From a bacterium (lineage in GTDB: Bacteria > UBP18 > UBA7526): a stretch of DNA of 38,512 nucleotides. Both the position numbers and the translations under genes were made by a program. Positions 3,668 to 24,878 of the stretch are shown here, piece by piece (within the stretch, counting starts at the first letter, position 1; every line of letters begins with the position of its first letter). The stretch spans positions 1 to 38,512 of the forward strand of contig JAUWYL010000009.1 of assembly GCA_030615855.1 (NCBI GenBank), written 5' to 3'. Under the pieces are notes generated by a model, which did no database searches, was not told where the DNA came from, and saw only the letters and a list, made by a program, of their open reading frames with translations.

Positions 3668-4573
3668 TTAACTGTAGAAATCCATCAAGACCTTCTTCAG
3701 TTTCTCAACATTCTCTTCACTCATTGGTGATAAGGGAAGCCTTAATTCTGGGGTATCGAGTAGTCCCTGCAGGGCCATGGCAGTCTTCACTGGTATGGGA
3801 TTGGTCTCAATGAACATGGCCTTACATAAGGGAAAGATCTTATAGTGGACCTCTTTTGCCTTCTCTAAGTTTCCCTTATTAAACTCATCGACCAGGGCTG
3901 CCATCTCCGCCGGAACGAGGTTTGCCACCACAGAGATTACTCCCTTTCCTCCTAAGGCAAGCATGGGAAGGACGATAAAGTCATCCCCAGATATGAGGTC
4001 GAACTTATCTCCACAGAGTCCTACGATATCAGAAGCCTGCTTCAGATCGCCACTGGCCTCCTTTATGCCCACGATATTCTCTATCTTGGAGAGTTTGGCC
4101 ACCGTCTCGGGTAAGAGATTGACGCTTGTTCTTCCCGGAACATTATAGAGAACGATGGGAATATCCACCTCTTTAGCGATCTTCTCAAAGTGGAGATACA
4201 TCCCCTTCGGAGTGGGCTTATTGTAATAGGGGGTAATTATCAAGGCTCCATCTGCCCCAGCTTCTTTGGCATGCTTGGTCAAATTTAGTGCCTCCTCTGT
4301 ATTATTAGAGCCAGTTCCAGCGATTACCGGAACCTTCCGGGCCAGAGGCCCTTCCAGGCCGGAGGCCTTTCCCTTGGCCTCATCAATGACCACTTCCACT
4401 ACCTTCTCATGCTCCTCAAATGATAGGGTGGCACTCTCTCCCGTTGTTCCACAAGGGACAATAACATCCGTTCCATTCTTGATGTGGAAATCGACCAATT
4501 CCCTCAACTTCTTCTCATCCACCTTCCCCTCTTTAAATGGGGTAACTAAAGCCACCATAGAACCACTAAACAT
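3668..4573 (-). CDS. dapA: 4-hydroxy-tetrahydrodipicolinate synthase, with an 11-aa in-frame insertion
   Basis: GTTGES, YNVPGRT and GIKEASG motifs. Confidence 0.96.
   Translation of the reverse strand: MFSGSMVALVTPFKEGKVDEKKLRELVDFHIKNGTDVIVPCGTTGESATLSFEEHEKVVEVVIDEAKGKASGLEGPLARKVPVIAGTGSNNTEEALNLTKHAKEAGADGALIITPYYNKPTPKGMYLHFEKIAKEVDIPIVLYNVPGRTSVNLLPETVAKLSKIENIVGIKEASGDLKQASDIVGLCGDKFDLISGDDFIVLPMLALGGKGVISVVANLVPAEMAALVDEFNKGNLEKAKEVHYKIFPLCKAMFIETNPIPVKTAMALQGLLDTPELRLPLSPMSEENVEKLKKVLMDFYS
4333..4369. repeat. 33-bp palindromic element inside dapA
   Basis: CCTT direct repeats 33 bp apart; homologous to 18693-18725 and 24422-24458. Confidence 0.85.
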
Positions 4574-4590
4574 CCCTACACCTCCGTTTC

Positions 4591-4686
4591 AATGCAAATT
4601 GCAAAATTAACAGTCAGCAAGTCAAAGTTACTTATTCTCTCTTTTTCAATTTTGCATTGCTAATTTTGCATTTTTCATTTTGCACT
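4591..4686. repeat. Empty inverted short-repeat array (TGCAAA / TTTTGCA) between lysA and dapA
   Basis: aatgcaaattgcaaaa on the left; ttttgcat...ttttgcat...ttttgcac on the right. Confidence 0.7.
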
Positions 4687-4687
4687 G

Positions 4688-5956
4688 TTATATTTCTTCT
4701 CCTCTTATTAGGTCGCTGTAGTCTTCTCTTTTCCTAATGATGCGATATCTATCTTTTTTTACCAAAACTTCAGCCACTTTAGGTCGGGCATTGTAATTGG
4801 AAGACATACTGAAGCCATAGGCGCCAGCATCGAGAATGGCAAGTAAATCACCAGACTTTACTTCTGGTAGTTCCCTGTTTTTAGCGAAATAGTCTCCGCT
4901 CTCGCATACTGGGCCAACAATATCTACAGTAGTTCGGAGTTCGGAGTTCGTAGTTCGTAGTTTCTTGATGGAAATGATCTCGTGGTAGGCGTTATAAAGT
5001 GTGGGGCGGATGAGGTTATTCATTGCCGCATCGACAATAACAAAGGTTTTCTCTTTTGTCTTCTTGATATAAAGAACTTTTGTTACCAATATACCAGCAT
5101 CACCAATAATTGCCCTTCCTGGCTCAAGGATTATTCTATACTTCAATCTTTTAATTAAGGGTAACAACTTTTTAGCAAACTCCCCAGAAGTAGGTGCTTT
5201 CTCATCCTTTTTGTAACTTATTCCCAAACCTCCTCCAATATCCAGATACCTTAATTTAATTCCTTCTTTTTCTAATTCCTTTATCAGTTCAACAATTTTT
5301 TCTAAACTATCAACAAAGGGTTCTAATTCTGTAATCTGAGAGCCGATGTGCATATGGATTCCCATAGTCTCGATATTCTTTAGTTCTTCTGCTTTTTTAT
5401 AGGCTTCTTTCGCCCCCGATATATCGATGCCAAACTTACTCTTCGCCAAACCAGTAGAGATATGGGGATGGGTATTGGGATCAATATCTGGATTTATTCT
5501 CAAAGCAACGGATGCCTTTTTCTTTAATTTTCCTGCTATTTTATTAGTAAGTTCTAACTCTGGAATGGATTCCACATTGAGCATTAGGATATCACTCTTT
5601 AAAGCGTATTCAATCTCTTCTTGAGTTTTGCCCACTCCAGAGAAAACTATCTTCTTAGGATCTACTCCTACCTTTAATGCTTTGTAGAGTTCGCCTCCAG
5701 AAACGATATCTGCTCCTGCGCCCTGTTCCTTCAAAAGTTTGCAAATAGAGAGATTAGAGTTCGCCTTGTAGGAGTAGCAGATGAGATGGTCGATTTCCTT
5801 AAAAGCCTCATCAAAGGCTCGGTAATTATTCGCGATTCTCTTCTGACTATAGAGATAGAAAGGAGTCCCTACTTTTCTATCAACATCCTCGATTTTTACG
5901 TCCTCACAATATAATTCATTATCTCTGTAATCAAAACTTTTCATCACTGTAATCAT
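4688..5956 (-). CDS. lysA: Diaminopimelate decarboxylase
   Basis: YSYKAN, HMHIGSQ, GGG, EPGR, GPVCESGD and GAYG motifs. Confidence 0.96.
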   Translation of the reverse strand: MITVMKSFDYRDNELYCEDVKIEDVDRKVGTPFYLYSQKRIANNYRAFDEAFKEIDHLICYSYKANSNLSICKLLKEQGAGADIVSGGELYKALKVGVDPKKIVFSGVGKTQEEIEYALKSDILMLNVESIPELELTNKIAGKLKKKASVALRINPDIDPNTHPHISTGLAKSKFGIDISGAKEAYKKAEELKNIETMGIHMHIGSQITELEPFVDSLEKIVELIKELEKEGIKLRYLDIGGGLGISYKKDEKAPTSGEFAKKLLPLIKRLKYRIILEPGRAIIGDAGILVTKVLYIKKTKEKTFVIVDAAMNNLIRPTLYNAYHEIISIKKLRTTNSELRTTVDIVGPVCESGDYFAKNRELPEVKSGDLLAILDAGAYGFSMSSNYNARPKVAEVLVKKDRYRIIRKREDYSDLIRGEEI

Positions 5957-7293
5957 TTCTTTTTCACTGTCTCTTTTCCTTGGACAATGAGCCTCTTCAC
6001 ACTCTCCTTCGCTGTCCCACCCAAAGACTTCCGGGCAGCAATGCCCGCCTCTACTTTTATGGTCTCAAAGACATCCCGATCAAATAATTTAGAGTAGGTT
6101 TTAAAATCTTTCAAGGTTAAAGCATTCAAGCCCTTCTTCTTTTTGATGGTCTCTTTCACTAACTTACTCATTATCTGATGGGCCTTCCTGAAAGGCAAAC
6201 CCTTCTTCACTAAATAGTCTGCTAAATCGGTAGCCATAGAGAAGTCACCCTCCAGAAAAGCCAACATCCTCTTCTTATCTATCTTCATGGTATCGAGCAT
6301 CTGGGCATAGATGGATAGAGAATCCTTCAAGGTATCTACAGTATCGAATAGAGGAACTTTATCCTCCTGCATATCCCGATTGTAGGCTAAGGGTAAAGAC
6401 TTCATAGTGGTTAATAAACTCATCAGATTCCCATAGACCTTTCCCGTCTTTCCCCTTATGAGCTCACAGACATCCGGGTTCCTCTTCTGGGGCATGATGG
6501 AGGAGCCAGTGGTAAATGCTTCGGCAAGTTCGATAAAACCAAACTCCTTACTTGAGAAAAGGATGAGTTCCTCGCTTAACCTGGAAAGATGCATCATGAT
6601 TAGGGAAGCATGGGCTAAGAACTCAATAATAAAGTCCCTATCTGAGACAGCATCCATGCTGCTTGGGGCCACTTTGGAAAAGCCTAAGAGTCGGGCAGTA
6701 TATTCCCGGTCAATGGGATGGGAAGTTCCTGCTAAAGCAGCGGCTCCCAAGGGAGAGACATCCACCCGATCAAAGGTATTCAAAAGCCTCTCCCAATCCC
6801 TGTCGAGCATGAAGAAGTAGGCCATTATCCAGTGAGAGAATAGTATAGGCTGGGCATGCTGCAAGTGGGTATAACCAGGCATAACGACATCTATATTCTT
6901 CTCTGCTACTTTGAGAATACTCTTCTGCAAATTCCTGATTAACTTTGCAATCTCCTTTATTTCATCCCGCAAGAAGAGATGCATATCCAGAGTGATCTGG
7001 TCGTTTCGGCTCCGTCCAGTATGAAGCTTCGCTCCTATGTCCCCGATCTTCTCTATGAGCCTCTTCTCAATGTGGGTATGGATATCTTCCAAAGAAGGAT
7101 GAAACTCAAATTTTCCGGTTTTTATTTCCTTCTCTATCTCCTTCAAGGCTTTAACAATTATCTTCCCTTCAGAGTCGGCAATAATCTTACACTTGGTGAG
7201 CATCTTAACATGAGCAATGGAGCCCTGAATATCATACTTATAGAGCCTTTTGTCAAAGGAGATAGATTCCAAGAATTCCTCTATTTTTTTCAT
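5953..7293 (-). CDS. argH: Argininosuccinate lyase
   Basis: HTGRSRNDQ and GSSIMPQKRNPD motifs. Confidence 0.96.
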   Translation of the reverse strand: MKKIEEFLESISFDKRLYKYDIQGSIAHVKMLTKCKIIADSEGKIIVKALKEIEKEIKTGKFEFHPSLEDIHTHIEKRLIEKIGDIGAKLHTGRSRNDQITLDMHLFLRDEIKEIAKLIRNLQKSILKVAEKNIDVVMPGYTHLQHAQPILFSHWIMAYFFMLDRDWERLLNTFDRVDVSPLGAAALAGTSHPIDREYTARLLGFSKVAPSSMDAVSDRDFIIEFLAHASLIMMHLSRLSEELILFSSKEFGFIELAEAFTTGSSIMPQKRNPDVCELIRGKTGKVYGNLMSLLTTMKSLPLAYNRDMQEDKVPLFDTVDTLKDSLSIYAQMLDTMKIDKKRMLAFLEGDFSMATDLADYLVKKGLPFRKAHQIMSKLVKETIKKKKGLNALTLKDFKTYSKLFDRDVFETIKVEAGIAARKSLGGTAKESVKRLIVQGKETVKKK

Positions 7294-7294
7294 A

Positions 7295-8530
7295 CTATTT
7301 CTCCTTTGCCGCCTTTGGCGGCACCCCGCCCTTTGGCGGTGGCGCTATCTTTGCCTTTACCTTTAGGGGAAGACTTAAGATTTCTATGAAGCCCTTGGCC
7401 AATTTCTGATCGAAGATATCTCCTTTGCCATAGGTGGCCAGGGCCTGGCTATAGAGAGAATAAGGAGACTTTCGACCAACGACAATACAATCTCCTTTAT
7501 AGAGTTTGAGCCTCACGGTTCCTGTGACGTTCTTCTGGGTCTTTTCAATGAATTCATCCAGGGCCTTCTTTAAGGGAGAATGCCACATCCCGCCATAGAT
7601 GAGTTCGCTGTACTTCTTATCGACCAGTGCTTTGAACTCTAACGTCTGGCAGGTAAGGGTTAAATTCTCCATCTCCTTGTGGGCCAGATAAAGAATCCTT
7701 CCTGCTGGTGCCTCGTATATCTCCCTGGACTTTATTCCTACCACCCGAGATTCAATATGATCTACACGACCGACTCCATTCGCTCCCCCAATCTCATTCA
7801 ACTTAGCGATCAAATCTATTGGTTTATATTCTTTACCATCTATCTTCTTGGGAATCCCATCCTCAAAGTCGATCTCTAAGTAGGTAGGCTTATCCGGTGC
7901 TTTCTCTGGTGAAGTAGTCAATTGATAGATCTCCCCTGGCGGCTCCCTCCAGGGGTCTTCTAAAACACCACACTCGATAGAGACTCCCCAGAGATTCCTA
8001 TCAATACTGTAGGGAATCTCTTTGGTTGTCTTTAAAGGAACATTATGCTTCTTGGCATAATCCATCTCCTCTTCCCTGGTCTTTAGTTCCCATTCCCGAA
8101 CTGGAGCAAGAACCTTCATATCCGGGGCTAAGGCACTAATTGAGATCTCGAAGCGCACCTGGTCATTTCCCTTACCAGTGCAACCGTGTGCCACAGCATC
8201 CGCCTTCTCTTCCTTAGCCACTTCTACTAATGATTCTGCGATCAATGGTCGGGATAAAGCAGTAGCCAATAGATACTTATCCTCATAGATGGCATTGGCA
8301 CATAATCCCTTGAAGACAAAGTCTTTTACAAACCTTACCTTCAAATCCTTTACCACTACCTTCTCTGCCCCGATCTTAGCTGCTCTCTCTTTGGCATCCT
8401 CTAAGTCTTCTCCCTGTCCCAAGTCAGCTAAAAGAGCAATTATCGGAACCTTATACTTCTCCTGTAACCACTTCAAGATTACAGAGGTATCCAGCCCCCC
8501 AGAATAAGCCAGAACAATCTTTTTAATCAT
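7295..8530 (-). CDS. argG: Argininosuccinate synthase
   Basis: LAYSGGLDTS and HGCTGKGNDQVRFE motifs. Confidence 0.97.
   Translation of the reverse strand: MIKKIVLAYSGGLDTSVILKWLQEKYKVPIIALLADLGQGEDLEDAKERAAKIGAEKVVVKDLKVRFVKDFVFKGLCANAIYEDKYLLATALSRPLIAESLVEVAKEEKADAVAHGCTGKGNDQVRFEISISALAPDMKVLAPVREWELKTREEEMDYAKKHNVPLKTTKEIPYSIDRNLWGVSIECGVLEDPWREPPGEIYQLTTSPEKAPDKPTYLEIDFEDGIPKKIDGKEYKPIDLIAKLNEIGGANGVGRVDHIESRVVGIKSREIYEAPAGRILYLAHKEMENLTLTCQTLEFKALVDKKYSELIYGGMWHSPLKKALDEFIEKTQKNVTGTVRLKLYKGDCIVVGRKSPYSLYSQALATYGKGDIFDQKLAKGFIEILSLPLKVKAKIAPPPKGGVPPKAAKEK
7307..7342. repeat. Double-hairpin palindromic element in the 3' end of argG
   Basis: tgccgcc-ttt-ggcggca followed by ccccgcc-cttt-ggcggtgg; homolog at 19710-19742. 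Confidence 0.8.
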
Positions 8531-9459
8531 TATTTTCCTCCCATCAAAAGTACTAAGATTGCTTTTTGGACGTGGAGCCGATTCTCTGCCTGGTCGAAGA
8601 CCACCGAATGCGGCCCATCCATCACCCCATCCGTAATCTCCTCTCCCCGATGGGCAGGGAGACAGTGCATGACAATACAGTCCTTCTTTGCCTTTGAAAC
8701 CAGCTCTTCGTTCACCTGATAGGGATAGAAGATGCTCCTTCGCTCTGCGGCTTCTTCCTCCTTCCCCATACTTGCCCAGACATCGGTGTAGATAACATCT
8801 GCATCCTTTACCGCCTCAGATGGGTCTTCAAGGATGTTTATCTTTGTACTACTTATCATGGCCTCACCGCTTGCCCTCCTCACCACTGTCTCATTCGGTT
8901 GATAGCGAGAGGGGCAGGCGAGAGAGAGTTCTATCCCCATCTTGGCCGCCCCATAGCACCAGGAGTTGGCAACATTATTCCCGTCACCGACATAGGCCAC
9001 CTTTAGTTTCTTGAGCCTTCCCTTCTTCTCTCTTATGGTATAGAGATCAGATAACACCTGGCAGGGGTGAAGAAGATCAGATAAGCCATTTATCACTGGA
9101 ATGGTACTATACTTAGCCAAATCCTCTACATCCTGATGGTCATAGGTCCTGATCATTATCCCGTCCACATAACGGGAGAGGGTAAGTGCCGTATCCTTAA
9201 TCGTCTCTCCCCTTCGCAGTTGCAGATCCTGGGCACTCAAGAATAGAGCATATCCTCCCAACTGGTACATTCCGGCCTCGAAGGAAACCCTGGTCCTGGT
9301 AGAGGGCTTCTGAAAGATCATGGCCAATGTCGTATCCAATAACAGAAGATGCTCCTTCCTCTTCTTATGCAATTTTTTTAACTTCTTTGTCAGTTTGAAT
9401 ATCTGATTAATCTCTTTTGGCGTCAAATCAGCAATAGAGATTAAATCTTTATGTTTCAT
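8530..9459 (-). CDS. argF: Ornithine carbamoyltransferase
   Basis: KPSTRTR, HPCQ, SMG and HCLP motifs. Confidence 0.96.
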   Translation of the reverse strand: MKHKDLISIADLTPKEINQIFKLTKKLKKLHKKRKEHLLLLDTTLAMIFQKPSTRTRVSFEAGMYQLGGYALFLSAQDLQLRRGETIKDTALTLSRYVDGIMIRTYDHQDVEDLAKYSTIPVINGLSDLLHPCQVLSDLYTIREKKGRLKKLKVAYVGDGNNVANSWCYGAAKMGIELSLACPSRYQPNETVVRRASGEAMISSTKINILEDPSEAVKDADVIYTDVWASMGKEEEAAERRSIFYPYQVNEELVSKAKKDCIVMHCLPAHRGEEITDGVMDGPHSVVFDQAENRLHVQKAILVLLMGGK

Positions 9460-9496
9460 TGTTTTCTCCTTGGATCATAAGTTAACAAGAGACGTT

Positions 9497-9527
9497 ATGC
9501 GTTGATGCGTTTATGTGTTTATGCGTT
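9497..9527. repeat. ATGCGTT x4 arm (8-nt period) downstream of the four-helix-bundle gene
   Basis: atgcgttg atgcgttt atgtgttt atgcgtt. Confidence 0.85.
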
Positions 9528-9903
9528 AAGTCATTTTGCATTTTGTCAAATATCTAATGTAACCGTTAAGCACTTTACGCGTTCTAATACACAGATTATA
9601 TAATTTTTGACACTCTTTCAAAGGAGCCTGCTTTAGATCTCTGGCGGCAATAATATGGTTTCTGGTTTCTTCTAACGAACCCCGGGCTATACGACAAGAA
9701 TGAATATTCTCCTGCCAGTGGTATCTGCCGAATCCTTCGGCTATATTAGCCCCCACAGAGGAAGAAGAACGCTTCAGCTGTGCTATGCGATTGTATTTTT
9801 CATCTTCTGGAAGATATTTGACAAACTTATACACTTCTAACATTACTTGATGGGCTAATTTCCAAGCATCCAGATCTTCAAAATTGTCTATCTTTCCTAG
9901 CAT
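9526..9903 (-). CDS. Four-helix-bundle protein (23S rRNA-intervening-sequence protein family)
   Basis: FEDLDAWK, QLKRSSSSVGANIAEGFGR and IARGSLEE motifs. Confidence 0.9.
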   Translation of the reverse strand: MLGKIDNFEDLDAWKLAHQVMLEVYKFVKYLPEDEKYNRIAQLKRSSSSVGANIAEGFGRYHWQENIHSCRIARGSLEETRNHIIAARDLKQAPLKECQKLYNLCIRTRKVLNGYIRYLTKCKMT

Positions 9904-9917
9904 TCTTCTCTCCTTTT

Positions 9918-9945
9918 CGCATCAACGCATTTCGCATTAACGCAT
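9918..9945. repeat. AACGCAT arm upstream of the four-helix-bundle gene (inverse of 9497-9527)
   Basis: cgcatc aacgcat tt cgcatt aacgcat; overlaps the argD stop codon. Confidence 0.8.
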
Positions 9946-11124: not shown

Positions 11125-11232
11125 CCCGCACCTTCTCCGAATCCTATTATTTTTATTTAACTACTGTGCTAACCTCTATGTCCCCCCATACCCTCTTATT
11201 AAGAATATGATTGAATATAAGAAGGTGCGGGG
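11124..11232. mobile_element. MITE, 109 bp, second copy of 1319-1426
   Basis: Same 13-bp TIR and a closely similar internal sequence; flanks TTCA/TTTA. Confidence 0.85.
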
Positions 11233-11233
11233 T

Positions 11234-14768: not shown

Positions 14769-14793
14769 ATCTAAAAATTAGTTATTACTAAGT

Positions 14794-15393
14794 TTACTCT
14801 TTTCTAACATCTTCTTGAATATCTTGAACAAATTTAGCTAATTGACTTTTTGCTTTTTTGCTTCTATTAGAAATAAAATAAACATTTGTTTTTAAATATT
14901 GTCCAATCTGATACATCTCAAAATCACAGGTAAGGATTTTAGCTTTAAGTTGTTTACCTTCTGTTAATATTATAAAATCATTTAACTCAACATGTTTAAC
15001 TTTTCTTTTTCTTGGATACTCATCATATTTTTCTATGACCGAATCAATAGTTAATGGTGTACCACCCCACCTTATTGGTGGCCCTATTTTTGTAAGAACG
15101 GGTTTAAATTTTTTCATAAGTGTCATTTTTGGGCTTAAACGATACCCTTTTCTAAAGTATTCAATAAATTCAAAAAATGCGCTATGACTTACATATAATC
15201 CTATTCTATCCTTATACTGCCGTAGAAAATTGATTGCGGCCCAAACATCTCGGTGGTGGTGGTGTGAAGAATCACACAGAGGTATCAATATTGAGGTATC
15301 TAACAATACTTTTATTTCTTTCTTTTTTGTTCTTATTTTTCTGGGCCGTGAGCCCTTTGTTAGTGGTACTTTTTTATTGCTTGTCTTTGCCAT
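14794..15393 (-). CDS. PIN-domain (VapC-like) ribonuclease
   Basis: VLLDTSILI, EFIE, LNDFIIL and ILTCD acidic motifs; AT-rich. ATG 15393 lies behind GAGGTG. Confidence 0.8.
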   Translation of the reverse strand: MAKTSNKKVPLTKGSRPRKIRTKKKEIKVLLDTSILIPLCDSSHHHHRDVWAAINFLRQYKDRIGLYVSHSAFFEFIEYFRKGYRLSPKMTLMKKFKPVLTKIGPPIRWGGTPLTIDSVIEKYDEYPRKRKVKHVELNDFIILTEGKQLKAKILTCDFEMYQIGQYLKTNVYFISNRSKKAKSQLAKFVQDIQEDVRKE

Positions 15394-15426
15394 CCCATAC
15401 ACCTCTTAATAATCTTGATAGTTTGT

Positions 15427-15462
15427 AGGGCGGCGTCTTAAACCAGCTGGACTAACGCGCCA
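15427..15462 (-). repeat. Exact copy of the 5' half of tRNA-Glu (att-like direct repeat of 14734-14769)
   Basis: 36-bp identity, ending at CCCT just before the anticodon. Confidence 0.92.
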
Positions 15463-15474
15463 AAATTTCTGAAA

Positions 15475-15572
15475 GAAATTTTGATCTCGAGTCCAGGAAG
15501 TGGCCAAGAGACCTTAAAATACAACATGAAATTTTGATCTCGAATCCCGAACTTCATCGGGATGAGAGACCT
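15475..15572. repeat. Two tandem units GAAATTTTGATCTCGA...AGAGACCT
   Basis: Copies at 15475-15514 and 15528-15572; the second encloses the hairpin atcccga-acttca-tcgggat. Confidence 0.7.
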
Positions 15573-15581
15573 ATAATTTAG

Positions 15582-15662
15582 GTATAACATTTTTCGCGCT
15601 TACAACGTTGTGCCCATAAGAGGAAAATATATCTAAGGCCTTTTGTTTAACCTATGTTATGC
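15582..15662 (-). other. Degenerate attC-like site
   Basis: R'' GCATAAC ... R' GTTATAC. The R'' flank matches the putative cassette start at 16452-16469 at 13/18; L boxes are poor. Confidence 0.5.
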
Positions 15663-15673
15663 AAGCTGCAAAA

Positions 15674-16435
15674 TTATGATATTTTTCCTCTTTTAGATAA
15701 ATCTTTAAACATTCTATTTACAGAATCTATACAAACGGCAAAAAGATCTTGTACTTCATCAATACCATATTTAGCTTCAGGATGTTGTGTTGGATTTCTT
15801 TCGTTATATCTGATGCTATCTAAACTGTCTAACAGAGCTTTAGGGGGGGCATCTCTTCTTTTTCTTAAATGTTCAATTATATTACCCCACATCAGTGAAG
15901 CAACTCTTCCATATTTAACAATACTACAATAATAAAATCTAAGAACTCCTTCTGTACCTCTTAAAATATGAAATGCTGCTGCTGTAGGAAGATCAAATGC
16001 TATGCATTTGCCAGCTTCGCTAAAATCGAATTTGGCCAATAGGGGCATTCTTGAGAATACATTTTGAGCAAATAATTCTTGGATGTTATCCACTAATTTT
16101 TTAGTGTCATACCTTTTAGGAGTTATTAAATATGTGTACCGCATCTTCAGTTCAGCATCTAATGTTCTATCTATTTCGTCAACTGCTTCTGTTATTTTGG
16201 TCGCAAGTTTTAAATTTACTTTTTCCTTATTATTCATCTTTCTCAACTCTTTTTCAAGTTTACGTAAACCATCAGCTGCCTTTTTAGTAACTTCTAAATC
16301 TAGAATATCAAAATAGTTAAGAGTGTTTTCCAATGTTGCAAGTACATCTTGAACTGTCCTATTCGCTGATGAATATCTTAATAGACGGTAGTCATATCCA
16401 AAGGCATAATAATTAAATATTTCAGTTTTTTTCAT
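15674..16435 (-). CDS. Hypothetical protein with a C-terminal HEPN-like (RxxxxH) domain
   Basis: EAGKCIAFDLPTAAAFHILRGTE and RNPTQH motifs; AT-rich. ATG 16435 lies behind AGGAG. Confidence 0.7.
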   Translation of the reverse strand: MKKTEIFNYYAFGYDYRLLRYSSANRTVQDVLATLENTLNYFDILDLEVTKKAADGLRKLEKELRKMNNKEKVNLKLATKITEAVDEIDRTLDAELKMRYTYLITPKRYDTKKLVDNIQELFAQNVFSRMPLLAKFDFSEAGKCIAFDLPTAAAFHILRGTEGVLRFYYCSIVKYGRVASLMWGNIIEHLRKRRDAPPKALLDSLDSIRYNERNPTQHPEAKYGIDEVQDLFAVCIDSVNRMFKDLSKRGKIS

Positions 16436-16500
16436 TCTATCTCCTTTTATAATTTGTATCTTGCCTAATTTGTTCGTCAATTTCTATTGAAACTGGCCTG

Positions 16501-16526
16501 CCAACCGAAGCCCTAGCGAAGGTTGG
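16501..16526. repeat. REP-like hairpin CCAACC-N14-GGTTGG adjoining the tRNA-Gln 3'-end copy
   Basis: ccaacc gaagccctagcgaa ggttgg. Confidence 0.6.
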
Positions 16527-16534
16527 CTGCGGGA
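16524..16534 (-). repeat. 11-bp copy of the tRNA-Gln 3' end (TCCCGCAGCCA)
   Basis: Identical to 16938-16948. Confidence 0.8.
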
Positions 16535-16536
16535 TA

Positions 16537-16595
16537 GGCGAACGGTTGAGTTTACCGGCGCGGGTCAGTGCGTATGGTGAAACGAAGTGCTAGGA
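16537..16595 (-). other. Integron attC site (59-base element)
   Basis: TCCTAGC-5nt-GTTTCACC-19nt-GGTAAAC-6nt-GTTCGCC. L''/L' pair with one extrahelical base, and the gene stop lies in R''. Confidence 0.85.
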
Positions 16596-16930
16596 AGCAA
16601 TTGTTTCTTCGGTTTCCCTTCGCTTTTTCATGCGCTTGTTCAACAAGTAACAAACTATTGCTGAAACCAAAAGAACGGGGAATCCTAAACCGGAGAGCAT
16701 CGGAATAATGAGCAAAGCCCACGCGTGGTACTCATCCATGGGGCCGCCCTGCAAGATTGCAGTGCCATAGTAAATAATGATGGGATTGACTATTGACAGA
16801 AGAAGGAGAAGGCCAACAAGTTTGGGGACACGCTTTGCCAAAAACCCTGCGACAACTCCTGCAACAACGTTTACCAGGAATAACGCTGACCATTCTAAAA
16901 TATTTGTTGGCATAAATTCCTGCTTCCTAA
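16543..16930 (-). mobile_element. Integron gene cassette carrying one small membrane-protein gene
   Basis: Starts G/TTAGGAAGCA, complementary at 10/11 to TGCTTCCTAGC at the R'' end; ends at the G/TT of attC R'. Confidence 0.82.
16590..16913 (-). CDS. Small multi-pass membrane protein (107 aa, hypothetical)
   Basis: MPTNILEWSALFLVNVVAG... with about 3-4 hydrophobic segments. The longer ORF-track start crosses the tRNA and is rejected. Confidence 0.75.
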   Translation of the reverse strand: MPTNILEWSALFLVNVVAGVVAGFLAKRVPKLVGLLLLLSIVNPIIIYYGTAILQGGPMDEYHAWALLIIPMLSGLGFPVLLVSAIVCYLLNKRMKKRRETEETIAS

Positions 16931-16937
16931 CCTGGAA

Positions 16938-17011
16938 TGGCTGCGGGACCAGGATTCGAACCTGGGCGACGAGATCCAGAATCTCGCATCCTACCGCTAG
17001 ATGATCCCGCA
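16938..17011 (-). tRNA. tRNA-Gln (CTG)
   Basis: TGCGGGA...CGAGA-TTCTGGA-TCTCG...CCAGGTTCGAATCCTGG-TCCCGCA-GCCA. Confidence 0.96.
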
Positions 17012-17037
17012 AATAAGCTTCACTTCGTTCAACAAAA

Positions 17038-17102: not shown

Positions 17103-17109
17103 CTTGTTT

Positions 17110-17138
17110 ATAATAACATATGTAGAGCAAAATAGCAA
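17110..17138 (-). promoter_or_regulatory. Putative sigma70 promoter for the tRNA operon
   Basis: TTGCTA-17nt-TATTAT with a TG extension. Confidence 0.6.
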
Positions 17139-17143
17139 AATTT

Positions 17144-18547: not shown

Positions 18548-18557
18548 CCTTCACTCC

Positions 18558-19826
18558 TCAGGTCCTATAATGAGCATTGATCTTCACATAATCCGAGGTT
18601 AGATCACAGGTCCAAATCTTAGTATTTTCTTTTCCCAGATTTAAATCCACTATTATCTTAATCTCTTTCCCCTTTAGAATCTTCTTTGCCTCCCTCCGGG
18701 TCAGAGACCCTCTTGGGTCGGAGACTTCTTCACTGAATTTAGCGCTACAACCTTTGGAGGCTAACTTTAAATCCCCAAGATAGATATCTACTTTGTTCTC
18801 TTCTATTTTGACTCCGCTATTCCCGATGGCAGCCATTATTCTTCCCCAGTTGGCATCCTCTCCAAAGATGGCGGTCTTAACCAAAAGGGAATTAGCGATA
18901 GAGAAGGCAATCCTCTTTGCATCTTCCAATTTTAGGGCATTTTTGACTTCAATCTCGATGAACTTTGTCGCTCCCTCTCCATCTTTAACAATCATCTTGG
19001 CCAATTTTAGAGTCACTTCATCCAACCCAGAGGAGAACTTCTTAAAGTCTTCATTTTCTTTATCGACCTCTTCATTCTCCGCCAAACCATTGGCCAAAAT
19101 GACAACCATATCGTTGGTGCTCTCTTCTCCATCAACTGTAATCATATTGAATGACTTAGCGATAGAAGACTTTAGTGCCTTTTTCAATAATTCGCCACCA
19201 ATCGCCACATCCGTAGTAATAAAAGAGAGCATGGTGGCAAGGTGAGGGAAGATCATCCCTGCCCCCTTTGCCATTCCTCCAATAACAGACCTCTTACCAC
19301 CTATATTCAACTCTACCGCTACCTCTTTAGGGAAAGTATCAGTGGTCATTATTGCGCTTGCTGCATCACCACCCCCCTCTCCACTCAACTTACCTTTTGC
19401 CTCCTTTATTCCTTCGATAATCTTATCCATAGGCAGGAAAGTGCCGATGGTCCCTGTAGAAGTAACTAAAACATCTTCTTTCTCTATGCCCAGTATTTGT
19501 GCCGTCGCTTGAGTCATCTCTTCTGCATCCTCTAATCCTTTCTTTCCTGTTGCAGCATTGGCAATACCTGAGTTTATGACAATTGCCTGGGCCTTTCCAT
19601 CCTTAATATGTTCGGCACTTACTTTTAGGGGGGCAGCCTTAACCTGGTTAGTGGTGAATAATGCTGTAGCCCTTGCCATAACCTCGGAGTAGATTAAGGC
19701 TAAGTCTTTTGCCGCCTCGGCGGCACCCCGCTTCAGCGGTGGCTTTCCCCCTTTCTTAATCCCACAAGAAATCCCCGCAGCCTTAAAACCGCGGGGAGCA
19801 GTAATCCCACCCTCGATTTCTTTCAT
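18558..19826 (-). CDS. argJ: Bifunctional ornithine acetyltransferase/N-acetylglutamate synthase, with two 11-aa insertions
   Basis: IMTTDT, KGAGMI...ATML, DGEGATK and DANWGR motifs. Confidence 0.95.
   Translation of the reverse strand: MKEIEGGITAPRGFKAAGISCGIKKGGKPPLKRGAAEAAKDLALIYSEVMARATALFTTNQVKAAPLKVSAEHIKDGKAQAIVINSGIANAATGKKGLEDAEEMTQATAQILGIEKEDVLVTSTGTIGTFLPMDKIIEGIKEAKGKLSGEGGGDAASAIMTTDTFPKEVAVELNIGGKRSVIGGMAKGAGMIFPHLATMLSFITTDVAIGGELLKKALKSSIAKSFNMITVDGEESTNDMVVILANGLAENEEVDKENEDFKKFSSGLDEVTLKLAKMIVKDGEGATKFIEIEVKNALKLEDAKRIAFSIANSLLVKTAIFGEDANWGRIMAAIGNSGVKIEENKVDIYLGDLKLASKGCSAKFSEEVSDPRGSLTRREAKKILKGKEIKIIVDLNLGKENTKIWTCDLTSDYVKINAHYRT
18693..18725. repeat. 33-bp palindromic element inside argJ
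   Basis: cctccgggtcagagaccctcttgggtcggagac; encodes VSDPRGSLTRR. Confidence 0.85.
19710..19742. repeat. 33-bp double-hairpin element inside argJ
   Basis: tgccgcc-tc-ggcggca followed by ccccgc-ttca-gcggtgg; encodes PPLKRGAAEAA. Confidence 0.85.
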
Positions 19827-19840
19827 ATCCTTCCCCTTAG

Positions 19841-19940
19841 ACGCGGATAATCACAGATTTTCTACGGATAATCGCGGATAAATCCGTGCTAATCCGTGTT
19901 TAATATACCCAAGCAGTAAGTAAAACGAAAAAATCCGTGT
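19841..19940. repeat. Empty CACGGAT/ATCCGTG inverted array between argC and argJ
   Basis: Four left units, then atccgtg units including the ~50-bp unit. Confidence 0.85.
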
Positions 19941-20987
19941 TCAGGGGGTGATCCCGGGAGATTCTAATCCCAGTGTCTCCTTAAAACCATACATAATATT
20001 CATATTCTGTACTGCCTGACCACTGGCTCCTTTTACTAAGTTATCTATGGCCGATACGATAATGGCCCGATTCGTTCGCTCATCTACTTTAATTCCGACA
20101 TCACAGTAGTTCGATCCATAGACATTTTTTGTCTCTGGAAAAGTGCCTTTCTCCAAGATTCGGACAAATGGTTCCTTTTTATAGAAGTTTTGATATAGTT
20201 TTATGATCTCTTCCTCCTTCATCTTTTTGGTTAAGTTAAGGTAAATAGTAGAGAGTATCCCCCGGTTCATGGGAAGGAGATGGGGAGTGAAGGAAATCTT
20301 GATCTCCTTCTTTGCCAATTTAGATAGTTCCTGCTCTATTTCTGGGGTATGGCGATGGGTAGCGATGGAGTAGGCCTTGACATTCTCATTGCACTCTGGA
20401 TAGTGAGCGACCATAGAGGGAACCCTTCCTGCCCCCGTGGCACCAGATAGAGAATTGGCAATGATATTCTCAGTCTCCACTATCTTATTTACTAAAAGCG
20501 GTGCCACGCCGAGGATAATGCCCGTGGGATAGCATCCAGGATTGGCTATTAGGTTTGCCTTCTTTATCTTCTCTTTATAGAGCTCTGGTAATCCATAGAC
20601 CGCTTGGGGGTTTAGTTTCTTACTCTCTTCTGTATGGGGAGCATACCACTCTTCATAGATCTTAAGGTCGTCAAAGCGGAAGTCGGCACTTAGATCAATG
20701 ACCTTCTTCCCCAACTTGATGAATTGGGGCACAAACTTCAAGGATACCTTATGGGGAAGGGCAAGGAATATGAGATCACTCTCCTTTGCCATATCATTAA
20801 TATCTAAATCAGTACATACCAAATTGATCCTTCCCTTTAAAGAAGGAAAGATATCGGATATTTCCTGAGGTTTTCCATCCATCTTGGCCGCTAATTTGGT
20901 AATCTTTACCTCCGGATGGCCCAGAAGTATCCTGATGAGTTCTATTCCGGCATATCCTGTAGCACCAGCAATCCCTACTTTAATCAT
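19941..20987 (-). CDS. argC: N-acetyl-gamma-glutamyl-phosphate reductase
   Basis: GATGYAG, ANPGCYPT and DNLVKGASGQA motifs. Confidence 0.96.
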   Translation of the reverse strand: MIKVGIAGATGYAGIELIRILLGHPEVKITKLAAKMDGKPQEISDIFPSLKGRINLVCTDLDINDMAKESDLIFLALPHKVSLKFVPQFIKLGKKVIDLSADFRFDDLKIYEEWYAPHTEESKKLNPQAVYGLPELYKEKIKKANLIANPGCYPTGIILGVAPLLVNKIVETENIIANSLSGATGAGRVPSMVAHYPECNENVKAYSIATHRHTPEIEQELSKLAKKEIKISFTPHLLPMNRGILSTIYLNLTKKMKEEEIIKLYQNFYKKEPFVRILEKGTFPETKNVYGSNYCDVGIKVDERTNRAIIVSAIDNLVKGASGQAVQNMNIMYGFKETLGLESPGITP

Positions 20988-21007
20988 CTTTCCCTCACTT
21001 TGTTCGG

Positions 21008-21181
21008 AAGTAAAAAGTAAAAAGTAAAAATTTGAAAACTGTTAACAGAAATCTGAAAACTGTAGTGAAATTAGAAACCGGAAAACTGTTTTCGGTTTTC
21101 TCTACTGATTTCTGTTTTCTAATAACCGATTTCCGTCCTCTCCAGATAACCGACTATTGACTATGGACTATTGACTATTGA
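21008..21181. repeat. Compound short-repeat region (AAGTAAA x3; GAAAAC/GTTTTC inverted array; GACTATT x4)
   Basis: Units read directly in the rpsI-argC spacer. Confidence 0.8.
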
Positions 21182-21193
21182 TCTCGTCCATCG

Positions 21194-21601
21194 TTATCGT
21201 TTCGTCCACTGGAAGCGCTTCCTAGCTCCCTTCTGACCGTACTTCTTCCTCTCCTTCATCCTGGGATCCCGGGTCAAAAGTCCTGCCTTCTTTAATATTG
21301 GTCCAAAGGATTCGTCTGCCTGGGTTAGGGCACGAGAGATGCCATGTCGCAGGGCCTCTGCCTGACCGGAGTTCCCTCCCCCATTCACCCGAACGAAGAT
21401 ATCGAATTTATCACCTGTTTTAGTAATTTCCAAAGGCTGCTTAATGATTATTCTCTGAATCTCCTGAGGGAAGTATTCCTCCAAAGGCTTCCTGTTAACG
21501 AGTATCTGCCCCTTCCCGGGAATTAGTCTCACCCTTGCTATGGCATCCTTCCTTCTCCCTGTTCCCTGATATTGGGTTATCTTTTTCTGTTTCTTAACCA
21601 T
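21194..21601 (-). CDS. rpsI: 30S ribosomal protein S9
   Basis: GTGRRK, GGGNSGQ and ERKKYG...QWTKR motifs. Confidence 0.97.
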
Positions 21602-22040
21602 TTATTTTTTTCACCTCTATTTGAACCGGATTCTGTGCCTCATGAGGATGCTCGTTCCCTTTATAGACCCTTAGTTTTTTAAACATTGCTCTTCCCAATT
21701 TCGTCTTGGGAAGCATCCCCTTGACTGCCAATTCTATTACCTTCTCCGGCTTCTCTTTTAATAACCTATCATACCTTATGGACTTCAACCCTCCCGGATA
21801 ACCAGAGTGACGGCGATAGTACTTCTGCTCCAACTTTTTCCCGGTTAGGACGACTTGAGAGGCGTTGATTACTATTACGTGATCCCCGGTATCGACATGT
21901 GGAGTATAGATAGGCTTGTGCTTTCCTCTCAAGATGGTAGCTGCTTTTACTGCTACCTTACCCAGGACCTTTCCTTTGGCATCTATGATATACCACTTTC
22001 TCTTAATATCCTCTTTCTTAGCACTATATGTCTTCTCCAT
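21594..22040 (-). CDS. rplM: 50S ribosomal protein L13
   Basis: [15 protein letters not shown] and HSGYPGG motifs. Start moved to ATG 22040. Confidence 0.97.
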
Positions 22041-22064
22041 ATTTTTCTCCCTAATTAACTTCAA

Positions 22065-22093
22065 ATTATATTATAAAATCAATTCTCTGTCAA
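22065..22093 (-). promoter_or_regulatory. Consensus sigma70 promoter of rplM-rpsI
   Basis: TTGACA-17nt-TATAAT. Confidence 0.9.
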
Positions 22094-22122
22094 CCCCACC
22101 CCTCCCTTAGACAAGATAGGTA

Positions 22123-22189
22123 ACCACGGATTTCACAGATTCTCACGGATTAATACTTAAAAATCTGTCCAATCCGTCTAATCCGTGGT
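22123..22189. repeat. Empty CACGGAT/ATCCGTG inverted array
   Basis: cacggat, cacagat, cacggat followed by atctgt, atccgt, atccgtg. Confidence 0.85.
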
Positions 22190-22220
22190 TTCATTGAAGT
22201 TCCGGAGCTTAGATATAAAC

Positions 22221-22249
22221 ATTATGTCACAAAGCAGGAGCGGGGTCAA
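22221..22249 (-). promoter_or_regulatory. Second, upstream sigma70-type promoter
   Basis: TTGACC-17nt-CATAAT with a TG extension. Confidence 0.65.
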
Positions 22250-22303
22250 GTTTTGCTTTTTAATTCCTAAAAACGAAGATAATTCATCTCTCGTATAGAA
22301 ACA

Positions 22304-22340
22304 ACAAAAAGGGGTTTCGATGGTTCGAAACCCCTTTTGT
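22304..22340. terminator. Intrinsic terminator after the SPFH gene
   Basis: aaaaaggggtttcga-tggt-tcgaaaccccttttg. Confidence 0.85.
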
Positions 22341-22363
22341 CTGCTACAGGAAAATAATATCCC

Positions 22364-23260
22364 TTAACTCTTTTTCTCTTCCTTTGGAGTTTCCTTCGTC
22401 TCCTTGAACAATTCGCTTATGCCAGCTATGCTTCCCAGAACCCCGGTTGTCTCTAATGGCAGGAAAATCTTAGTCGCCTTGCCATCGGCAATCTTCTGCA
22501 AAGCCTCAAGGTACTTTATGGCAACTAAGTCATTGGTCGGTCTCCCCTTATGTATGGCTCCATAAACGTTTTCAATGGCTTGGGCCTCACCCTGAGCAAC
22601 GAGAATCTTAGCCTGTCGGCTGCCTTCTGCCCTCAGAATCTCGGCCTGCTTCTCACCGTCTGCTCTTAGGATAGCGGCCTGTTTTACTCCCTCAGCCTCC
22701 AGGATGACAGCTCGCTTTGTCCTCTCCGCCTTCATCTGTCTGCTCATGGCCTCAGTAATATCCTTAGGTGGATCGATCTTCTGAAGTTCGACCCGGGTGA
22801 CTTTAACCCCCCATTTATCCGTGGCTTCATCCAGCACCATGCGAAGTTGCTCATTTATTCGGTTACGTGAAGTCAGGGTCTGGTCAAGTTGCATCTCACC
22901 GATAACATTTCTCAGGTTGGTCTGGGCCAATTTTAAGGCAGCTAACTCAAAACGCGCTACATTATAGGTGACCTTGAAGGGATCGGTTATCTGGAAGTAA
23001 ATGACGGCATCTACGGTAACCAAAACATTATCCTTGGTGATTACATCCTGGGGCGGCACATCGATGACCCGTTCCCGCACATCCACCTTCCTGATGGTTT
23101 CTATCAAGGGGAAGATGAAGGCCAGTCCGGAATCCTCAGTGCGCACAAACTTACCCAGCCTCTCTACCAGACCCTTTTCAAAGGGACGGATGATCCGCAG
23201 GGCCTTGGTCCCAAAGATAATTACCAGGACAACCAAGCCAATAATTACTGGTCCTATCAT
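22364..23260 (-). CDS. SPFH/band-7 (QmcA/stomatin-like) membrane protein
   Basis: VERLGKF, QDVITKDNV, WGVKVTRVE and QMKAER motifs. Confidence 0.92.
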   Translation of the reverse strand: MIGPVIIGLVVLVIIFGTKALRIIRPFEKGLVERLGKFVRTEDSGLAFIFPLIETIRKVDVRERVIDVPPQDVITKDNVLVTVDAVIYFQITDPFKVTYNVARFELAALKLAQTNLRNVIGEMQLDQTLTSRNRINEQLRMVLDEATDKWGVKVTRVELQKIDPPKDITEAMSRQMKAERTKRAVILEAEGVKQAAILRADGEKQAEILRAEGSRQAKILVAQGEAQAIENVYGAIHKGRPTNDLVAIKYLEALQKIADGKATKIFLPLETTGVLGSIAGISELFKETKETPKEEKKS

Positions 23261-23279
23261 AATACTACCTCCTTTCTCT

Positions 23280-23717
23280 TCATTTTTGAACTACTAAGTG
23301 GGTTCCTTTTACCTCCCGTATCTTCACCTTTTCTCCCGCGGCGATCCTTTCCTTAGCTTCCGCACGCCACTTCTCACCTTCCACTATAACCATACCCATC
23401 TTCTCGGGTTCGATCGTCTCCACTACCTGAGCCTCTTTGCTCAGCAATGCGTCAATAGTGGTGCGCTTTGCCGAAACCTTTTTTTCCAACCTGCGAACTA
23501 AGGGGCGACTACCTAAAATTAAAAGCGCAGAAAGGATAACAAAGACCAGCCAGGAAACCCACCAGATTTCAGTGAAGAGGGTACTGATCCCGGCTAATAG
23601 GGCCCCCAATCCTAAGCAGACAAAGAAGAAGGTGCCTGGTGTCAAAATCTCGGCAATGATGAGAATTACACCGGCGGCAACCCAGTAAACCCAGGGATCA
23701 ATGGTAAAAGGATTCAT
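23280..23717 (-). CDS. NfeD-like (YbbJ-type) membrane protein
   Basis: AEILTPG, TM segments and a C-terminal GEKWRAE OB-fold; paired with the SPFH gene. Confidence 0.9.
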   Translation of the reverse strand: MNPFTIDPWVYWVAAGVILIIAEILTPGTFFFVCLGLGALLAGISTLFTEIWWVSWLVFVILSALLILGSRPLVRRLEKKVSAKRTTIDALLSKEAQVVETIEPEKMGMVIVEGEKWRAEAKERIAAGEKVKIREVKGTHLVVQK

Positions 23718-23760
23718 TTCCCTCCTCCATTATTTAGTATCTTCATTCTCTTATGCTAAA

Positions 23761-23789
23761 ACTCTACCACGACTATTCTATAAAGTCAA
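23761..23789 (-). promoter_or_regulatory. Putative promoter of nfeD-SPFH
   Basis: TTGACT-17nt-TAGAGT with a TG extension. Confidence 0.7.
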
Positions 23790-23830
23790 GTTTAATTTCT
23801 AACGTGATGCTACTTTATCATTCCCAAATG

Positions 23831-23864
23831 CCCGCTAAAGCGGGATTCTGGCTAAAGCCAGAAT
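23831..23864. repeat. Intergenic double-hairpin element
   Basis: cccgc-taaa-gcggg followed by attctggc-taaa-gccagaat. Confidence 0.7.
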
Positions 23865-23882
23865 AGCCCGGGAATGTGGGAA

Positions 23883-24039
23883 CAAGATATCCCCTTCGGG
23901 GATACTTCCATAGGGGTTTTACCCCTCTGGCGGTCGGCAAAGTCATACTTTGCCTCCCTGTCACCCCTTGGGGGAAAGCAGATTCTTTCCCCCAAACCCC
24001 CTAATCCTCAGCATCGGAGTTGTTGAAATTCCGATGCTT
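23883..24039 (-). repeat. 157-bp multi-hairpin repeat (candidate structured RNA), copy 3' of truA
   Basis: About 7 mismatches to 24897-25053; five hairpins. Confidence 0.9.
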
Positions 24040-24044
24040 TGAGA

Positions 24045-24878
24045 CTAATATCCTACTTTTATGAGATAAAGGCCTTTGGCAAGAGCAGTGGGACCGGCGA
24101 ATCTGCGATTGCGGGCCTTTATGATCTCTTTTACCTTAGAAGGACTGATCTTTCCCTTTCCCACCTCAATTAGAGTTCCCACAATGGTGCGCACCATTCC
24201 ATAGAGGAAGCCGTCGGCCTCAACGTTGATAAAAATGGCTCTGCCATTTTTTCGCATATCGCATATTGCATATCGCATATCGCTTTGAGAAGTTATGGAA
24301 AGTTTTGTGATGGTGCGGACTGGACTTCTAACACTAGAGCCTGAGAGTTGAAAAGAGGAGAAGTTATGCTTACCCATTAGATGCTTTGCTCCTTCTCTCA
24401 TGGCCTTTAGATTGAGTTTGTAGGGTCTCCGACCCAGAGGGGTCTCTGCCCCGGAGGGAATATAGAGGACATAATCCTTTAGGAATGGTGAAGGTGTGGA
24501 GTCCTGATAGATGACATATCTATAGTGCTTGCTCTTGGCATCGAATTGGGCGTGAAATCTTTCTTTTACTCGCTGAGCATTTTTGATAGCAATGTCTTTA
24601 GGAAACATACTGTTTAGGGCCTTTTTAAATTCCTCTGGGGTCATCTTGCTCTTTGTCCTGAAGTTTGCCACCTGACCTAAAGCATGAACCCCGGCATCCG
24701 TTCTCCCCGCCCCAATTACTTTAATCTTCTCCTCAGTGATTTTACTCAATGCTGCCTCTAAAACTCCCTGTATCGTCTTCTTCTGAAGCTTGGAGCCTGT
24801 AGCCTGAAGCCTCTCCTGTCTCTGCCACCCCCTATAATTCGTCCCTTCATATTCAATAACGAGTCTTATATTCTGCAT
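24045..24878 (-). CDS. truA: tRNA pseudouridine(38-40) synthase, with three repeat-derived insertions
   Basis: YEGTNYRGWQ, GAGRTDAGVHA and FLYGMVR motifs. Confidence 0.95.
   Translation of the reverse strand: MQNIRLVIEYEGTNYRGWQRQERLQATGSKLQKKTIQGVLEAALSKITEEKIKVIGAGRTDAGVHALGQVANFRTKSKMTPEEFKKALNSMFPKDIAIKNAQRVKERFHAQFDAKSKHYRYVIYQDSTPSPFLKDYVLYIPSGAETPLGRRPYKLNLKAMREGAKHLMGKHNFSSFQLSGSSVRSPVRTITKLSITSQSDMRYAICDMRKNGRAIFINVEADGFLYGMVRTIVGTLIEVGKGKISPSKVKEIIKARNRRFAGPTALAKGLYLIKVGY
24422..24458. repeat. 33-bp palindromic element inside truA (opposite orientation to the dapA and argJ copies)
   Basis: AGGG direct repeats 33 bp apart; removal restores IPYK. Confidence 0.85.

Follow-up and report, generated by a model that had tools for sequence, protein, structure and literature searches.

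Three copies of one element in dapA, argJ and truA

The stretch of DNA analysed here, referred to as the window, comprises 38,512 nucleotides of a bacterial contig (JAUWYL010000009.1, lineage UBP18). It contains the genes dapA, argJ and truA, which like every gene in this part of the window lie on the minus strand, and each of the three carries in frame one copy of a 33-bp element (Table 1). As read from the aligned copies, the element is much richer in G+C than the window (37-48%). A first-pass annotation had described the three sites as copies of the same element that add three unrelated 11-residue peptides, and our analysis agreed on both counts. When the 16-nt core TCCGGGNCAGAGRCCC was searched with up to two mismatches, four matches were found at the dapA, argJ and truA sites, in comparison to a mean of 0.09 in shuffled sequences, and none of 100 shuffles reached four.

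The dapA site consists of CCTTCCGGGCCAGAGGCCCTTCCAGGCCGGAGG followed by CCTT (4333-4369, plus strand) and encodes the peptide (K)ASGLEGPLAR(K); the cut can be placed only to within 4 nt. The argJ copy, CCCTCCGGGTCAGAGACCCTCTTGGGTCGGAGA, encodes VSDPRGSLTRR and has a 1-nt ambiguity (18692-18724 or 18693-18725), and the truA copy encodes SGAETPLGRRP with a cut point ambiguous by 2 nt.

Table 1. Element copies, target words and host genes in the window. G001-G005 are relatives of the window's genome; X2 and X3 are runs whose contigs were compared with the window.
Feature	Position	Strand	Remarks
Element copy in dapA	4333..4365	+	Antisense to gene; covariance model E 3.9e-13; exactly 33 bp missing in G001-G005 and in X2 and X3 contigs
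CCTT target word of dapA	4366..4369	+	Present in empty sites; would complete the fourth arm of the inserted copy (AGGCC-GGA-GG, then CCT)
Element copy in argJ	18692..18725	+	Antisense to gene; covariance model E 5.8e-12
Element copy in truA	24426..24458	-	Sense to gene; covariance model E 3.3e-13
CCCT target word 3' of truA copy	24422..24425	-	Empty site of G002 is CCAT
dapA host gene	3668..4573	-	301 aa, intact; DapA 386.9 bits, above NCBIfam equivalog cut-off
argJ host gene	18558..19826	-	422 aa, intact; ArgJ 496.9 bits, above NCBIfam equivalog cut-off
truA host gene	24045..24878	-	277 aa, intact; TruA 205.2 bits, above NCBIfam equivalog cut-off

Presence and absence in related genomes

The genome of the window (G000; a 1.375-Mb assembly of 45 contigs, 93.6% complete) was compared with two relatives of the same genus and three of the same family (G001-G005). 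The six genomes of this phylum sample are 53-94% complete. A covariance model built from 15 intact copies of G000 detected these 15 and four further copies interrupted by a nested one, giving 19 elements at 14 loci. At 10 of the 14 loci, presence and absence between close relatives is exact, and the difference is 33 bp, or 66 bp for nested pairs. In dapA, exactly 33 bp are missing in all five relatives, the DapA proteins being 91-96% identical. The argJ gene is 33 bp shorter in G002 and G005, the empty site in the latter reading ...TTTGCCT^CTTCTTC (^, insertion point), and truA is 33 bp shorter in G001, G002 and G003. Empty sites were also found in TsaD (G001, G003, G005), aspartate kinase and a PilM-like protein (both in G001, G002, G003) and DnaX (G002). 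The nested pair of 66 bp in RecR is missing in G001-G003, and that in YchF is missing in all five relatives by match lengths and in three by alignment. In GspE, G001 lacks two of the three copies present in G000.

Without the element, as in the empty sites of the relatives, DapA again reads AKGKVP and TruA YIPYKL, which the annotation had predicted. It had also asked whether orthologs share the added peptides; the insert is missing from DapA of all five relatives, ArgJ of G002 and G005, and TruA of G001, G002 and G003.

The relatives have insertions of their own. By reading of matches, G001 has about 15 copies, G002 five, and G004 and G005 one each, and no convincing copy was seen in G003. Twenty loci of the relatives were compared with G000, which lacks exactly 33 bp at 10 of them, 66 bp at one and 36 bp at another, and five were not comparable; three insertions, in the TrmD tail, in a spacer on contig C26 and at the middle GspE copy, are common to G000 and relatives. 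One composite of 66 bp (G002, contig C30) is missing from the G000 ortholog, yet it is near-identical to a composite inside GspE of G000. Since this composite recurs at an unrelated locus, nested pairs appear to move as units bounded by the ends of the outer element.

Empty alleles also occur among closely related strains. A contig from run X2, a sister sample, with 8 differences over 365 nt (a strain of ~98% identity), passes directly from position 4332 to 4366 and thus represents an empty dapA allele, with four ambiguous letters at the joint. Two contigs of run X3 likewise skip from 4332 to 4366. Contigs of run X1, the presumed source, contained no such joint, a comparison at contig level that rare alleles could escape, and at the argJ site no empty-allele joint was present among the read-contig joints listed. 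Insertion of the element is recent and repeated in this genus.

Sequence and arm structure

Alignment of 15 uninterrupted genome copies, in which the dapA, argJ and truA sites are three members of one 33-bp family, gave the consensus CYYTCC-X-AGA-X'-YYY(Y)-X-GGA-GN(C), in which the arm X is GGGCC, GGGTC, GGGGC, GAGCC or GAGGC and X' is its complement. The first-pass annotation had interpreted the element as a single palindrome; the aligned copies instead describe a double hairpin with four alternating arms. Its second structural claim, that the stems carry compensatory changes, proved sound. Across the two 5-bp helices of the 15 copies, 89.3% of cells are paired and 18 cells are changed on both sides; none of 500 shuffles was as high, and controls with a slid register paired only 28-66%. 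The four arms within one copy vary in concert. Competing alternative folds exist, for instance an outer CTCCG:CGGAG stem around the middle hairpin, which corresponds to a 5-nt CTCCG...CGGAG inverted pair within the element.

The 5' trinucleotide (CCC, CCT or CTC) covaries with bases 1-3 of arm 3, with 97.6% of cells paired and four double changes, a value equalled by one of 500 shuffles. The same association was seen in 80 metagenome loci described below, where CTCTCC pairs with GAG-type arms in 55 copies (GAGCC in 52) and CCCTCC with GGG-type arms in 24 (GGGCC in 20). The left word is CCTT with an AGGCC-type arm 3, CCCT with GGG and CTCT with GAG, and because it tracks the subfamily it belongs to the element. 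Given this covariation, we take the 5' CYY to be the tail of arm 4: if the 3' end (…GGA-GN) were joined to CYY-TCC…, a perfect second hairpin would be restored. The unit may then be regarded as a circularly permuted closed cycle, X-AGA-X'-TCT-X-GGA-X'-TCC, of 32-33 nt, the last arm of which would be completed by the target.

Junctions and target word

From the empty sites, the inserted 33 nt begin at the CYYTCC of the element, and the target bases that follow resemble this CYYTCC start. The empty site is ^CCTT in dapA, TsaD, RecR, DnaX and loci L124 and L139; the others are ^CCTC in YchF, ^CCCTCT in PilM, ^CC(A/C)T in truA, ^CTCTC for the 66-bp composite and ^CTTC in argJ and aspartate kinase. 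Insertion takes place directly 5' of a pyrimidine word resembling CCTT. The PilM copy has a CCCTCT that resembles its target, and the exchange point can therefore lie inside the shared word.

Direct repeats of 4 bp spaced 33 bp apart had been noted in dapA and truA. The repeats are there (CCTT and CCCT, respectively), but they do not represent a fixed 4-bp target duplication: identity between the start of the insert and the following flank extends over 1-6 nt (2 nt in the four nested cases), which rules out a duplication of fixed length. A model of a 4-bp duplication around a 29-bp core was likewise rejected on the nested cases, TsaD, aspartate kinase and argJ.

Other copies also receive insertions in their loops, as do other hairpins in other lineages. 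For coding targets, the flanks of the relatives' copies showed no excess of pairing (2.08 vs 2.08), and a hairpin context was rejected for this class of target, the small excess seen in G000 being owed to its nested copies.

Two observations were made at aspartate kinase. Next to the G000 copy (C30, ~66800-66825), the native flank CCTCCGGGGCCTCCAGGCC, kept in all relatives, resembles half an element. The corresponding locus of G004 (L300) has a 9-bp tandem duplication (CTCCAGGCC) at the insertion spot.

Host genes and host proteins

Of the 14 loci in G000, 11 lie inside long open reading frames (ORFs), and every one of the 11 host proteins scores above its NCBIfam equivalog or subfamily cut-off. 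The hosts are DapA, ArgJ, TruA, TsaD, aspartate kinase, TrmD (in the C-terminal tail), DnaX, a PilM/GspL-like protein, RecR and YchF (a nested pair each) and GspE (three copies, one adjacent and one nested). The remaining three loci appear intergenic. The coding fraction of G000 is 0.885 by a crude, ORF-based estimate, so that 11 of 14 is close to the expectation for unbiased insertion, and genes show no visible depletion. The coding location of all three window copies had been pointed out beforehand; this part stands, but it does not extend to every copy, given the three apparently intergenic loci and the metagenome copies, most of which lie in hairpin loops.

At the coding loci, the element is antisense in eight and sense in three, several frames are used, and the peptides are unrelated. 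The insertion point is mostly preceded by T or A, in a context that is rich in pyrimidines on the element's top strand. Such a context is the antisense of GAA, AAG and AGG codons in a Lys/Glu-rich proteome, which fits the 8:3 orientation bias.

These distributions bear on whether the copies could be a selected functional module rather than selfish DNA, either as a protein motif or as a hairpin signal in RNA or DNA, for instance an attenuator, binding site or recombination site. Covariation in the stems indicates maintained pairing, and copies exist in many lineages, both as expected of such a module; however, the copies are missing from orthologs that are 91-96% identical in protein, they occur in both orientations and in different frames with unrelated peptides, and their sites are unrelated genes, spacers and the element itself. 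We consider a functional module very improbable.

By their reading frame, the in-frame copies would be translated as 11 extra residues. The element length of 33 is a multiple of three, and 10 of the 15 intact copies are free of stop codons in all six frames; these two properties would allow insertions in tolerant surface loops of essential enzymes to survive. An alternative is that the 33 nt are not translated: if they were cut out of the mRNA or skipped by the ribosome, the proteins would remain unchanged. Strong local hairpins make removal or bypass conceivable, and nothing direct speaks for it. On the other hand, an RNA-level signal would not tolerate both orientations within genes equally, and a multiple-of-three length with mostly stop-free frames fits selection for read-through, which would be needless if the insert were removed; there is hardly any probability left for this alternative.

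Structure mapping had been expected to place the inserts in surface loops. When DapA was aligned with relatives in the Protein Data Bank (2ehh), the insert formed a clean gap of 11 residues between AxG and (K/R)(V/I)xVIAGTG. In an AlphaFold2 model of DapA (42 sequences; mean pLDDT 94.6), residues 71-80 had a mean of 60; helix 52-66 precedes the insert and strand 83-86 follows it, which puts it at the N-terminal end of a barrel strand. DapA thus agrees with the expectation, the insert being modelled as a low-confidence loop in an otherwise confident fold. The inserts of ArgJ and TruA fall in regions already gapped against their PDB relatives.

Distribution beyond this lineage

An exact-pattern scan of metagenome contigs returned at least 120 stretches, of which 80 loci were analysed. 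Their flanks beyond 70 bp formed 75 distinct clusters. Only 21 of the 80 had any tblastn match to G000 (E<=1e-5) and the other 59 had none; among the 21, 18 matched at 30-61% identity, two matched only in the element codons, and one (L194, TrmD tail, 90%) belongs to the same lineage. Sediment metagenomes thus contain the family in abundance in lineages other than this one. One copy at least (L177) lies within the GatB gene of a different lineage, in frame with it, and the pattern is present in five viral contigs.

Many metagenome copies lie inside another copy or in the loop of a larger hairpin. Complementarity of their flanks averaged 4.17 bp vs 2.80 (sd 0.15) for shuffled partners, and reached at least 5 bp in 24 of 78. 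Among 395 species genomes of other families, only three single matches with one mismatch were found, with unpaired arms, and these are likely due to chance. Based on this near-absence, the carriers are particular, mostly uncultivated, lineages.

Candidate mechanism of movement

Taken together, we consider it likely that the copies belong to a gene-less, non-autonomous mobile DNA element of 33 bp that moves as a folded four-arm cycle with the help of a trans-acting enzyme. A selfish element resembling the Rickettsia palindromic elements (RPEs), much smaller and adding peptide loops to proteins, had been the central proposal of the first-pass annotation, and the presence/absence patterns, the empty strain allele, the nested and composite copies and the DapA loop model all favour it. 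The moving form would be single-stranded and folded, its four complementary 5-nt arms being joined by the loops AGA, TCT(Y), GGA and TCC into a 33-nt cycle. Chromosomal copies would represent the cycle opened inside arm 4. The cycle would recombine with a CYYT target word that matches the opened arm, so that the target re-completes the second hairpin, and cutting and joining would be carried out by an enzyme supplied in trans.

Several results weigh against this proposal. A Y1 transposase (Y1_Tnp, PF01797; RAYT and IS200/IS605) had no match in the six phylum genomes, which at 53-94% completeness is not proof of absence; the same profile matched 6 of 14 known genomes used as control. Type IB topoisomerase (PF01028), tried since the target resembles the poxvirus CCCTT site, was also found in none of the six and was dropped, and TnpB and IS110 families were not found in G000. 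A Pfam scan of 141 ORFs flanking metagenome copies revealed no enriched nuclease or transposase, and neither a GIY-YIG nor a Y1 transposase was among them. No circular or single-stranded intermediate was seen. The folding energy of the GC-rich 37-mers is unremarkable against shuffles (z -1.3 to 0.0, not significant), and it was dropped as a proof of structure. Replication-strand bias by GC skew (9 vs 5) was uninformative. The variable length of identity at the junctions is also expected from template switching.

G000 contains two small GIY-YIG nuclease ORFs of ~80-90 aa (C35:39292-39489 and C30:56620-56802), each with a G/C-rich inverted repeat of its own on both sides, as though the gene lay in a long hairpin's loop. 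They were rejected as mobilisers; the flanking repeats are unrelated to the 33-bp element, and none of the 141 ORFs flanking metagenome copies is of this kind.

Template switching (copy choice), which needs no dedicated enzyme, is a serious rival, although on balance we hold it to be unlikely. A nascent strand at a CYYT word would jump to the identical 5' word of a donor copy, copy its hairpins, which stall replication, and return at the CYYT after the donor. In addition to the varying shared word of 1-6 nt, a left word that is sometimes target-like (CCCTCT in the PilM copy) and a CYYT-like word following every donor are consistent with this process, as is the failure to find a transposase family in the searches of the phylum's genomes (Y1 and type IB topoisomerase in six, TnpB and IS110 in G000), and it accounts for composite units equally well. 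However, a pair of precise switches between unlinked loci would have to have occurred at least 19 times in a small genome, the left word varies with the subfamily of the element rather than with the target, and insertion into hairpin loops is not predicted. Near-identical copies in unrelated lineages, moreover, imply efficient and specific propagation.

Another explanation is a minimal derivative of IS200/IS605 or of the REP/RAYT system (PATE- or REPIN-like), in which a Y1 HUH transposase missing from the incomplete assemblies would perform single-stranded peel-and-paste. The behaviour of the IS200/IS605 family provides the comparison: two similar hairpins, no target duplication, precise empty alleles, and insertion beside a specific short word (ARGG^ on the bottom strand, seen as a ^CCTT-like word at most resolvable sites) that also ends the element. 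Nevertheless, the cognate TnpA (Y1) had no match in the six assemblies, while the control matched 6 of 14 known genomes, TnpB was not found in G000, no Y1 transposase occurs among the 141 ORFs near metagenome copies, and the element has no GTAG or CGTC tag and lies within genes at 11 of 14 loci, in contrast to the extragenic REPs. We therefore find such a derivative rather improbable.

A more specific form of the proposed cycle can be offered only tentatively. The element could be a self-templating 33-nt single-stranded four-arm cycle that carries its own target word and integrates wherever a CYYT word re-completes arm 4, using a housekeeping enzyme of the host (a Xer-type recombinase, a topoisomerase or a replication/repair activity) and no transposase of its own. 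If true, it would be the smallest known class of bacterial mobile DNA, and host-enzyme mobility would explain both the spread through uncultivated lineages and the steady addition of 11-residue loops.

Other repeats and features of the genome

A second double-hairpin family, CCGCC-NNN-GGCGG-AT-CAGCC-NNN-GGCTG, is represented by 12 genomic copies, mostly in the middle of 7-nt tandem arrays. Its window copy (33147-33174) is inside the intact leuC gene (32611-33909, minus strand), whose product has 432 aa vs a profile of 419 positions, and is probably another in-frame insert. In the DnaX linker (G000 C32; L114 ~1500-1560), a hairpin repeat CTGCCCRCCGAAG...GCGTAGGYGGG is present in the coding region of all relatives, and in G001 and G004 a second CTGCCCRCCGAAG-type repeat is located near the site of the 33-bp element of G000. 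A third small repeat, GCCCC-AGA-GGGGC-GAGACCTCGCC-TTCGG-CGGGC, was found at at least four G000 sites (C26:22866, C26:26005, C35:17696, C44:63719), and tandem arrays of the 8-nt unit AACTTRTY at many (e.g. C8:1763, C9:14663, C13:6131, C44:32517).

Within the window, the region ~14770-16940 has a low GC content (0.377) and no cover in the related strains of runs X2-X4, and one X3 contig joins 14769 to 16941. The ORFs 14794-15402 and 15674-16480 in this region match no NCBIfam family. It is probably a strain-specific islet.

Relation to known elements and significance

The literature searched, a limited library, contained no account of a bacterial in-frame double-hairpin element of ~33 bp. RPEs are described as palindromic, gene-less repeats of ~150 bp, inserted in frame in unrelated metabolic and housekeeping genes in a fold-compatible manner and encoding a conserved peptide, with 44 in-frame insertions in R. 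conorii (PMC10969869). The present element resembles them in that it is inserted in frame in housekeeping genes that are unrelated to each other and leaves them intact (11 hosts above NCBIfam cut-offs). By that description, it differs in its size (33 bp vs ~100-150 bp) and in its peptides, which vary by frame and orientation in contrast to the conserved RPE peptide, and also in its hosts, which are free-living uncultured sediment bacteria.

In mitochondria, the GC clusters of yeast (GC42) are presented as small GC-rich mobile units with the target word AG (PMC4478555). The GC clusters share with our element a tiny GC-rich hairpin unit in an AT-richer genome, presence/absence patterns, a short target word, the lack of a known transposase and a location inside genes. 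The double-hairpin elements of Allomyces, to which the same likeness extends, are reportedly very small mitochondrial elements, mobile between relatives (Paquin et al., 2000). Both are organellar, whereas the copies studied here are in a bacterial chromosome (dapA, argJ, dnaX), prefer a CCTT-like target and would form a permuted four-arm cycle.

REP (repetitive extragenic palindrome) sequences and REPINs are characterised as dispersed imperfect palindromes of 20-40 bp with stem covariation and a GTAG or CGTC tag, thought to move as single strands (PMC3733652, PMC3116915). On this account the likeness is that of a small dispersed palindromic unit with covarying stems. Neither tag, however, was found in any of the 15 aligned copies, RAYT was found in none of the six genomes, and the two hairpins of our mainly intragenic element are in direct order, in contrast to the inverted arrangement of the REPs. 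Classical MITEs, miniature transposable elements with inverted repeats that derive from DDE insertion sequences, differ in having a target duplication of fixed length; no parent insertion sequence was found for the 5-nt inverted pair in a search limited to the Y1, TnpB and IS110 families. The SDR repeats of cyanobacteria, said by Elhai et al. in 2008 to be mobile, 21-27 nt long and associated with hairpins, differ in host phylum and in sequence.

The element is an unusually small bacterial counterpart of the RPEs and of the mitochondrial double-hairpin elements, and it lowers the minimum size of bacterial mobile DNA to 33 bp, far under RPEs and MITEs. With its filled and empty alleles, nesting and composites, it provides a natural system in which selfish DNA adds loops to DapA, ArgJ, TruA, TsaD, DnaX, RecR, YchF and aspartate kinase. 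Inserts of this kind can mislead gene callers, alignments of orthologs and strain typing in genomes assembled from metagenomes. The failure to find a known transposase family, together with the apparent permuted closed cycle, may reveal an undescribed way of moving DNA, and the addition of loops by selfish DNA is a route to new protein sequence.

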